From a virus (Duplodnaviria > Heunggongvirae > Uroviricota > Caudoviricetes), in IMG/VR virus record IMGVR_UViG_3300042892_005180, positions 1 to 64,000 of that record: 64,000 nucleotides of DNA; one strand, 5' to 3'. Positions 10,895 through 12,227 of this stretch are shown in pieces; the first letter of the stretch is position 1, and every line of letters starts with the position of its first letter. Under the pieces are notes generated by a model that was not told the DNA's origin, made no database searches, and was given only the letters and a program-made list of their open reading frames with translations. Position numbers and translations under genes: made by a program.

Positions 10895-11280
10895 GAGAGT
10901 TCATGAACGTCATTCGGGAGAGCATAGAGTTCTCGACATATGGCTACTGGATTACCCCACAGGGTGAGGTCATCTCATGCTCGCGAATGTCCCACGGCGA
11001 GGCCGCAGCCGCCATGCTCGGAACGACCTTCGACGAGCATGACGAGGTATCCGAGCGGGCTGTCGTCAACGACGCCATTGAGATCGGTGCTGTCCGGGTC
11101 GTCGCCCAAAAAGGCAGCGACGAGTTCTCGGCCGAATGGTCTGACATGGCCATCACTGATGATTCGAAAAGGGCACTACTGTCCTTGATGGAACTCTACC
11201 AGGACCGCACCGCCTATGTGCTTGGCGACGAGTGGTTCGACAACTACCGGGCGGCGGTCAAGTATGTTCGGGCTGGCTAG
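10891..11280 (+). CDS. Leader-family protein (MREFMNVIRE..)
   Basis: ATGA overlap with the previous gene. The leader is paralogous to the 9941 leader. Confidence 0.6.
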   Translation: MREFMNVIRESIEFSTYGYWITPQGEVISCSRMSHGEAAAAMLGTTFDEHDEVSERAVVNDAIEIGAVRVVAQKGSDEFSAEWSDMAITDDSKRALLSLMELYQDRTAYVLGDEWFDNYRAAVKYVRAG

Positions 11281-12227
11281 CGGTTGCCGATCAGCTTAGC
11301 CAGGACGGGAGATTTTGCCAAGACGATTTCGCGTTGCTTCTCGCGTTGCCACGGCGTGGCGTCGAAAAGGAAGTCTCCACAGTCGATGACAGTTTCTCGA
11401 CCACCATTTTGCTCGAACTCTTCGGGCGGAGATGTGGGGCTCCAGAAATAAACGGGGTTCTCGGCGTTGAAAACATGCCGTCCGGCCCAGCCGTGGGACC
11501 AGTCCATGGCGTCCCAAACCCAGACCTCGCCGTTGCTGGTCACCCAACCCCTCAGGGCACCAATCTGGGACTGTGCCAACAGCTTGAGGAGTTGAGACTT
11601 GCCAGTCAGGAGACGGATGTATTTGTTGCCGAAGACGCGGACTGCGCTCTCGTTGATGTCTTTGACGAGGTTCCCCGTCACGGCGACCGGGTCAGAGATC
11701 ACCACCGTGCTGCCGCGCATCATCAGGTTGGCGTTGTGGATGTCGCAGAAATATTCGCTGTCATGTTTCTTCAGAAAGCCAGCCAGGAGATCGAGAGCAG
11801 TTTTGAACTCAGGCGGGAGACCAGTCACGTATTCCCGCGCGTCCTCTCGTGCGTAGCCGTAGTCGCGAACGTTCGTGACGTAGCGTTGGATGTGTTCGAC
11901 ATCACTCACGTCGATTGACGACAGGTCGAGTTTCTCTGTCCGTATAGCGAAATAGTCCGGCGTGATCTCGACCGGCTTACCAATGAACTTGGGGAAATGG
12001 GGGTTGGGATTCGCCCTCACGAACGCGATAAAATCCAGGTAGGCGCGATCTTTGGAATCGAAGAGTTTGACGACATAATCGGCACCTTCCTTGTGCATGA
12101 CGTTGCCGTGGCTGCCCCTCCCCATGATTCGATAGCCAGCCCGAGCCATAATGATCTCGGCGCGATCTCGCGTCGTCGGCATGGAGAGTTCGGCTAGTGT
12201 TTGCTCAAAGAGGTCGGTCGCGCGCAT
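11277..12227 (-). CDS. Protein-kinase-like protein with leader-like N-terminus (MRATDLFE..)
   Basis: Gly-rich loop plus Lys in GRGSHGNVMH...YVVKLF and a catalytic-loop-like CDIHNANLMM. CTAAATATgggATG upstream. The N-terminus ends L-F-E. Confidence 0.55.
   Translation of the reverse strand: MRATDLFEQTLAELSMPTTRDRAEIIMARAGYRIMGRGSHGNVMHKEGADYVVKLFDSKDRAYLDFIAFVRANPNPHFPKFIGKPVEITPDYFAIRTEKLDLSSIDVSDVEHIQRYVTNVRDYGYAREDAREYVTGLPPEFKTALDLLAGFLKKHDSEYFCDIHNANLMMRGSTVVISDPVAVTGNLVKDINESAVRVFGNKYIRLLTGKSQLLKLLAQSQIGALRGWVTSNGEVWVWDAMDWSHGWAGRHVFNAENPVYFWSPTSPPEEFEQNGGRETVIDCGDFLFDATPWQREKQREIVLAKSPVLAKLIGNR

Follow-up and report, generated by a model that had tools for sequence, protein, structure and literature searches.

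A minimal T7 gp0.7-type protein kinase with a capsid-targeting-like leader, encoded by a jumbo phage and possibly delivered with its DNA

A complete open reading frame of 316 codons plus a stop codon, starting with ATG and lying on the minus strand at 11277..12227 of the 64,000-nucleotide viral stretch analysed here (the window), encodes what is, judging from sequence comparison, very probably a protein kinase of the phage T7 gp0.7 (T7K) lineage. The product consists of a leader, a T7K-like kinase domain, a linker and a C-terminal domain. It is predicted to be an active, minimal kinase of the Ser/Thr/Tyr type, encoded by a jumbo phage akin to Agrobacterium phage Atu_ph07. That this kinase is packaged in the capsid and injected together with the DNA is plausible, and we give this proposal about an even chance of being correct. 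An identical protein was found on six metagenome contigs, one of which measures 119.5 kb (Logan SRR35488161_34746), indicating that the reading frame is a real, recurrent gene. All features described below are on the minus strand.

The kinase domain spans residues 11-185 (11673..12197), opens with LAELSMP and stops just past a DPV motif. It contains the glycine-rich ATP loop GRGSHG (residues 36-41, 12105..12122), the ATP-anchoring beta3 lysine Lys54 (12066..12068) within VVK (12066-12074), the catalytic loop DIHNAN (residues 162-167, 11727..11744), which aligns with FDMHSGN of T7 gp0.7, and D179-P180-V181 (11685..11693), which takes the place of DFG in the T7K family. Across 89 aligned homologues, K54, E98, D162, R171 and D179 were invariant and G31, G38, N167 and P180 were conserved in at least 90%, so that these motifs can be regarded as family-defining and not as products of chance. 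The consensus at the start of the domain was LxELSRP, with E13 and P17 conserved in at least 90% of the sequences. An exhaustive HMMER scan returned 1169 relatives of residues ~10-183; most are stand-alone proteins of 170-200 residues, and some are tandem copies or giant multi-domain proteins (P0007, P0038).

The relationship to T7 gp0.7 was seen at the profile level. PHROG 15752, the family of T7 gp0.7-type protein kinases, was matched at an E value of 3.5e-8 over residues 26-194. When the family profile was compared with T7 gp0.7 using hhalign, a probability of 97.6% and an E value of 3e-12 were obtained over 163 columns, covering T7 residues 45-220 and running through DPV. The aligned pairs (T7 gp0.7/target) included AGFKMLGNGHF/AGYRIMGRGSH, VIKV/VVKL, FDMHSGNIMF/CDIHNANLMM and ITDPVSF/ISDPVAV. 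DPV has been described as a family-specific substitute for DFG in T7K (PMC13645617). An earlier note on this DNA had deduced a protein-kinase-like fold from the glycine-rich loop, the VVK lysine and DIHNANL, had pointed to a parallel with the T7 gp0.7 kinase, and had proposed a fold assignment, kinase against non-kinase family, as a check. The fold deduction was borne out, the assignment came out as kinase, and the parallel is, on this sequence evidence, true homology of the kinase domains. A single-protein Pfam search (E values up to 10), a PDB sequence search and a PDB search with the kinase family profile returned nothing, and a complete bilobal catalytic domain matching Pkinase (PF00069) was not found in the target. 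The target also gave no match to Kinase-PolyVal (PF18762) at E values up to 10, and 17 of the 89 homologues matched that model weakly (best E 6e-4). We therefore assign the domain to the T7K lineage, as a relative of Kinase-PolyVal and not as a member.

An AlphaFold model built with the homologue alignment as input reached a mean pLDDT of 88 and a pTM of 0.69, whereas a single-sequence run reached a pLDDT of only 38.6. In the alignment-based model the kinase stops at about residue 185, directly past DPV, and there is no C-lobe, activation segment or helices F to I. The alignment of homologues agrees with the model in that the C-terminal kinase subdomain has been lost and the active site kept. 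These analyses established a kinase fold with intact ATP-binding and catalytic residues (GxGxxG, K54, D162/N167 and DPV 179-181) and without a C-lobe. The best structural neighbours of the model were kinases of T7-like podoviruses. With T7 gp0.7 (T7K; PHROG 15752) the protein shares the AGY/F-x-x-G-x-G loop, the VxK lysine, the D-x-H-x-x-N loop, DPV and the missing C-lobe. It differs in having no shut-off/DNA-binding domain, in place of which there is an unrelated C-terminal domain of 125 residues, in standing behind a late-type TAAATA box where the T7 gene stands behind an early promoter, in bearing a capsid-targeting-like leader common to neighbouring genes, and in belonging to a T4-related jumbo phage and not, as in T7, to a podovirus. 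With Kinase-PolyVal (PF18762; Iyer et al. 2017, PMC5512222) it has in common the loss of the whole C-terminal subdomain with retention of the active site, and the association with ART and GNAT effector domains; unlike the polyvalent giants, which have been proposed to be delivered with the DNA (PMC5512222), the target is a two-domain protein, and it misses the Pfam model.

The window has a GC content of 54-60%, and its genes include those for a ribonucleotide reductase, a DnaB-like helicase and a UvsW-like helicase. Based on helicase similarity (52-56% identity), the nearest cultured relatives were Sinorhizobium phage Phosso, Agrobacterium phage Atu_ph07 and Pseudomonas phage PA5oct, all of which are jumbo phages, and the region from 41.8 to 62.5 kb of the window is syntenic with Atu_ph07 genes ~gp50 to gp80. 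Among these, Atu_ph07 is Rak2-like and related to T4, and its genome encodes gp21-, gp23- and gp55-like proteins (Table S3, PMC6102473). As for the kinase, megablast of its region against cultured phages gave no match, tblastn with the protein identified only Rhizobium phage RHph_I1_18 among cultured phages, tblastn with a typical short homologue (P0017) identified none, and no homologue of the target was detected in Atu_ph07 by tblastn. As the searches of cultured phages were thus nearly empty, the subfamily appears to be essentially metagenomic. A related-locus search with the single kinase protein retrieved one IMG/VR locus, and scans for sigma-70 promoters and terminators around the kinase gene gave hits at chance level only.

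The N-terminus of the target is MRATDLFEQTLAE; residues 6-8 are L-F-E and residues 11-13 are L-A-E. These had been taken in the earlier note for two consecutive hydrophobic-x-E sites of a leader. The former site stood: MRATDLFE (residues 1-8, 12204..12227), which ends in L-F-E, is a degenerate member of a family of MRDLIDLIE-type leaders. The latter did not, as L11-A12-E13 belongs to the conserved LxELSRP start of the kinase domain, a stretch found again within tandem-kinase polyproteins and, in T7 gp0.7, at residues 45-48. The target leader is one residue shorter than the rest of the family and scores poorly against the profile unless a one-residue gap is allowed. The same layout, a leader followed by LxELSRP, is found in P0091 (MRNFIDIVESQRLDEISRP). 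In the model, residues 1-13 have a pLDDT below 50 and are the sole low-confidence stretch at the N-terminus.

Thirteen genes of the window start with MR(D/H/N/E)(L/F/W)(I/M)x(L/I)(I/V/F)E and further genes carry looser versions; the MRDLIDLIE-like decapeptide is present on at least 20 otherwise unrelated genes. The leader profile matched 13 of 108 N-termini against 2-8 of 17,874 internal positions; because the profile was derived from those same 13 peptides, it is the scarcity of matches at internal positions that is informative. Every leader ends in (L/I)-x-E within the first 8-14 residues, a pattern seen in only 10 of 89 non-leader genes. Two genes starting with MRHLIDLIES encode the identical peptide with seven synonymous differences, which argues for selection on the peptide. 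An explanation of the leader at the mRNA level was rejected on the grounds that many synonymous changes lie behind identical peptides and that the peptide persists at 36% GC. Seven further leader genes were found in the 9.6 kb past the left end of the window. The recognisable domains among the tagged proteins are ART-PolyVal (2450-3193 and 6757-8097), GNAT (12829-13572) and the target kinase; ART, GNAT and kinase are enzyme classes that populate polyvalent proteins (PMC5512222). Beyond this phage, leader-like N-termini were present on nearly all of the 150 listed relatives of the kinase or of the C-terminal domain. Many short homologues begin with 'MRLxELTRP', which is nothing more than the opening of the kinase domain. 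A viral contig of 36% GC has three adjacent genes with the leaders MKSHEFLPE, MKSYEFLIEN and MKITEIILED, and Atu_ph07 has eleven tandem genes with MRWEQLTE and similar leaders, so that the peptide is conserved across phages of 36-57% GC. No leader-like N-terminus was found in the first 50 kb of PA5oct.

The leader fits the pattern set by the capsid targeting sequence of T4 and by the L/I-x-E cleavage motif. This targeting sequence reads MKTYQEFIAE in T4 (PMC8442874), and it is the only feature that the highly diverse T4 internal proteins have in common (PMC3012670). In T4 Alt, the first six residues, MELITE, are removed at ITE-6 (PMC5694885). The kinase gene of RHph_I1_18 begins with (TTG)KSFSEHIAES, very close to the T4 sequence. 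As in T4 Alt and IPI-III, proteins of unrelated folds share only an N-terminal L/I-x-E peptide of about ten residues (MKTYQEFIAE and MELITE in T4). The T4 proteins are host-modifying or anti-defence proteins, and Alt is an ADP-ribosyltransferase like the products of several leader genes here. We know of no kinase among the T4 head proteins. The present set differs from that of T4 in comprising at least 20 tagged genes against ~4-6, in the acidity of its products, those of T4 being basic, and in that packaging and cleavage are putative here.

A TAAATA box is located at 12232..12237, 4 nt before the ATG (as TAAATAT, 12231-12237, 3 nt before it), and its first three letters, TAA, double as the stop codon of the reading frame upstream. 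TAAATA-N(2-7)-ATG occurs 21 times in the window, compared with 0.50 expected from shuffles (largest shuffle value, 2), and the spacer is exactly 4 nt in 17 of these cases. The hexamer itself occurs 30 times on the two strands of the window, ~25 of them upstream of genes, and no conserved -35 element was found upstream of the boxes. Eight of the 21 genes behind a box, including those of the UvsW-like helicase and two homing endonucleases, do not carry a leader, and the product of another of these eight has a match to a 'virion structural protein' PHROG. Leader genes that lie within operons, for their part, have no box and retain the peptide. The box is therefore a general expression signal; the TAAATAT element that had been noticed 3 nt upstream is real, but it does not mark the leader family as had been supposed. 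In CBB and GAP32, both Rak2-like phages, structural genes are preceded by ATAAATA, which has been taken as a late promoter, comparable to T4 TATAAATA (PMC5259590). By analogy, the TAAATA boxes may be gp55-type late promoters, the timing being drawn from these other phages. With a spacer of 4 nt, transcription would begin on or beside the AUG and would thus yield leaderless mRNAs.

Taking into account the late-type promoter, the T4-like leader, the polyvalent-type neighbours, the gp21-type protease in related phages and the proteome of Atu_ph07, packaging, which the earlier note had already raised, is the reading that fits best. The kinase gene would be transcribed from a T4/Rak2-type late promoter (TAAATA) as an essentially leaderless mRNA, and MRATDLFE would act like the T4 capsid targeting sequence to bring the kinase into the scaffold core of the prohead. 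A gp21-type prohead protease would cut off the leader, and the mature kinase would be injected together with the DNA to phosphorylate host proteins, either defence or takeover targets, ahead of any phage gene expression. Counting the kinase, at least 20 enzymes (ARTs, GNAT and others) carry a leader, and the set resembles polyvalent proteins in unbundled form. To this explanation as a whole, comprising a T7K-type kinase, late expression, packaging via the leader and injection, we attach middling confidence.

For Atu_ph07, we compared the proteins in the published virion ESI-MS/MS list (Table S5, PMC6102473) with the leader genes. The leader-bearing gp53-gp63 were mapped by gene order from the helicase (gp70), and their computed masses equalled the values in the table to two decimals. 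All were in the list (11/11; 3-31 unique peptides, 12-46% coverage), a result that is close to a single observation because these proteins are paralogues and belong to a cluster (gp31-76) whose products are mostly virion-associated, tagged or not. gp53 has a Zeta-toxin kinase domain and gp63 a weak GNAT match, and no T7K-type kinase was found among gp53-gp63. The set resembles the present one in its syntenic backbone, its MRWEQLTE-type leaders and its polyvalent-type domains; it differs in being one paralogous family non-homologous to the target kinase, and in having Shine-Dalgarno-type starts and no TAAATA box. A gp21-type prohead protease is encoded by relatives of the phage (gp204 in Atu_ph07, gp152 in PA5oct). 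In the ~83 kb of the 119.5-kb contig that were inspected, reaching ~9-10 kb past each end of the window, neither a structural gene nor a prohead protease was seen. The proteome papers on phAPEC6 and CBB (PMC5259590) make no mention of a protein kinase in the virion.

The same T7K-like kinase might instead be left out of the capsid, and be made and act inside the infected cell in the manner of T7 gp0.7, a reading to which we give an appreciable probability, though one clearly below even. The leader could then be a docking helix, a turnover tag for dangerous enzymes or a translation feature of leaderless mRNAs. T7 gp0.7 itself counts against delivery, being an early, cytoplasmic, non-virion enzyme whose N-terminus (MNITDIMNAIDA) loosely resembles the leaders, for example that of P0016 (MNIRDIMQIVEN). 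The structural neighbours of the model, which come from T7-like podoviruses, point the same way; in these phages we know of no prohead protease. So does charge: the leader proteins of the window are mostly acidic (pI 4.4-5.3; 6.1 for the target kinase), and this counts against delivery because the DNA-embedded internal proteins of T4 are highly basic (PMC8442874). The helicase and homing endonuclease genes that have a box and no leader show, in addition, that the product of a box gene need not be structural or packaged. On the other hand, a leader that heads unrelated folds (kinase, ART, GNAT and others of no assigned type), that stays conserved as a peptide from 36 to 57% GC and that always ends in L/I-x-E, as in T4 gp21 substrates, is harder to reconcile with an unpackaged enzyme. 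Retention of the peptide in operon genes without a TAAATA box speaks against a role purely at the mRNA level, the placing of a host-takeover enzyme under a late-type promoter is easiest to understand if the product is kept for the following infection, and the leader proteins of Atu_ph07 are present in virions.

The other two alternatives concern the activity itself. A phosphotransferase of the APH or choline-kinase type, acting on a small molecule such as an antibiotic, a sugar or a nucleotide signal and not on proteins, is very unlikely: the profile homology is to the T7 protein kinase and PHROG 15752, the helical C-terminal subdomain that forms the substrate pocket in APH is absent from the model, and the DPV motif is specific to T7K (PMC13645617). 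Still less probable, in our view, is a pseudokinase without catalytic activity whose role lies in structure or binding. A canonical kinase of the eukaryotic type would indeed be inactivated by loss of the C-lobe and activation segment; however, every residue for ATP binding and phosphotransfer is present and invariant across the family, and T7K is equally truncated yet hyperactive (PMC13645617).

Extending the packaging proposal to the neighbouring genes, we tentatively suggest, at a little under an even chance, that the jumbo phage pre-loads its capsid with at least 20-25 separately encoded host-modifying enzymes, including the T7K-like kinase, ART-PolyVals and GNAT. Each would bear a T4-like targeting peptide and be expressed from a leaderless late transcript, and the kinase would be active at time zero of infection, ahead of all phage transcription. 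T7K is known as a hyperpromiscuous kinase that disarms many bacterial defences (PMC13645617), and the late-type promoter and the capsid-targeting-like tag, taken together, point to delivery with the DNA. If true, the principle by which T4 addresses its internal proteins to the capsid would hold for a large set of jumbo-phage enzymes as well and would be linked to Aravind's concept of polyvalent proteins. The leader would then be a simple tag by which injected effectors of metagenomic phages could be predicted from sequence and cargo could be loaded into large capsids.

The C-terminal domain (~125 residues, 192-316; 11280..11654; core motif ALRGWVTSNGEVWVWDAMDWSHG) is separate from the kinase in the AlphaFold model, with pLDDT values mostly between 80 and 93, and is electrically neutral (pI 6.9). 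It is unrelated to the shut-off (SO) domain of T7K, which is basic: comparison of its profile with T7 residues 242-359 gave a probability of 0.25%. Kinase matches dominated every fold search carried out for this domain, and a PDB profile search was empty. The domain is 65% identical to residues 220-342 of P0002, a protein from another phage that has an ART-PolyVal ADP-ribosyltransferase as its N-terminal half. In P0045 (135 residues) the domain stands by itself behind a leader; it is also present at the start of the longer P0139, and in P0027. In T7K, the C-terminal domain focuses the promiscuous kinase onto DNA-bound substrates, and jumbo-phage homologues without the SO domain were noted in the same study and left as unknowns (PMC13645617). 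By analogy with T7K, we infer that the C-terminal domain is a targeting module combinable with different modifying enzymes; most likely it would select a substrate or a location, such that two different modifying enzymes are brought to the same target. The locus thus suggests how one SO-less homologue may be deployed, by means of a different targeting domain which it shares with an ADP-ribosyltransferase. Within the window, the core motif (ALRGW-x5-G-x-VWVWDA-x4-H) has a weak counterpart at residues 349-393 of the ART protein encoded at 6757-8097 (hhalign E 2e-4), and a fainter one in the reading frame at 9941-10894.

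Genes that open with the leader, the short N-terminal peptide of the MRDLIDLIE type, form an island at positions 2014-27306 and 51030-54670 of the window and at 10800-19274 of L011, a locus on a 119.5-kb metagenome contig. The island comprises at least 20 genes, and the leader, with L/I-x-E at its end, is the sole feature they have in common. Members with known domains encode ART-PolyVal (2450-3193 and 6757-8097) and GNAT (12829-13572) proteins, while many other genes are of unknown type. On the 119.5-kb contig, seven further leader genes flank the window directly on its left side. 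In ORF 3597-4376 (+), a flawless leader, MRDLIMLAE, is found at residue 109 with an internal ATG at 3921, which suggests a second gene start within the ORF or a fused leader gene. A GIY-YIG/Eco29kI-like gene (9375-9872 (-)), resembling genes for mobile endonucleases, adjoins the island.

The sequence TAAATA-N4-ATG was present at 21 sites against 0.5 expected, spread over 2004-62581 (for example 2440-2452, 9931-9943, 12225-12237, 54668-54680 and 62517-62531), and beyond these sites the hexamer TAAATA is nearly missing from the window. TAAATA-N4-ATG is a start signal used genome-wide. No conserved -35 element precedes the boxes at the 21 sites. By analogy, the boxes are probably late promoters of the T4/Rak2 type, and their transcripts would be leaderless. 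Two further genes of the mobile-endonuclease-like kind, one for a GIY-YIG-type and one for an HNH homing endonuclease (29728-30369 (+) and 54678-55109 (-)), each have a TAAATA box upstream. We also observed GGTCAA(A/C) repeated 0-17 nt 5' of a subset of the boxes, as in TTGGTCAAACGAGTAAATA. These copies (1996-2003, 5591-5598, 9914-9921, 26301-26308, 50556-50563, 51892-51899 and 55964-55975) may represent an extended promoter or regulatory element.

The minimal kinase gene of the T7 gp0.7 type is convergent with a gene for a leader-tagged 129-aa protein (10891-11280 (+)), and the stop codons of the two overlap. The 129-aa protein contains the motif YGYWITPQGEV...H, resembling a domain present four times in P0007, a metagenomic polyprotein of 1769 aa that also harbours several kinase copies. 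Immediately upstream of the kinase gene lies 12235-12783 (-), whose TAA stop codon constitutes the first three bases of the kinase gene's TAAATA box. The N-terminus of its product, MLMNRRTALAAMTASTFAAPVIA, contains a twin arginine and resembles a signal peptide.

The short motif (A/V)LRG-x(4-6)-G-x-V(W/Y)(V/I)(W/I)DA-x4-H, similar to the core of the kinase's C-terminal domain, was found in two other leader-tagged proteins, at residues 349-393 of ORF 6757-8097 (7801-7935; hhalign E 2e-4) and residues 72-102 of ORF 9941-10894 (10154-10246; hhalign E 0.012). The motif may be an accessory module in common.

In the metagenomic proteins P0003 (1021 aa), P0004 and P0007, which may be polyproteins or gene fusions, the minimal kinase domain occurs 2-5 times in tandem. 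Each repeat starts with L-N-E-L or L-D-E-L, and these openings fit the L-x-E cleavage pattern. The annotated kinase gene of Rhizobium phage RHph_I1_18 (L001 1201-1866) has the N-terminus (TTG)KSFSEHIAES, almost the T4 capsid targeting sequence MKTYQEFIAE, and the following gene (1866-2567) begins with MISFKSHLNES. Gene order is conserved between 41848-62519 and Agrobacterium phage Atu_ph07 (L002 12677-37556), including UvsW-like and DnaB-like helicases and gp64-, gp68- and gp72-like proteins. Where Atu_ph07 carries its gp53-63 array, the window harbours different genes.
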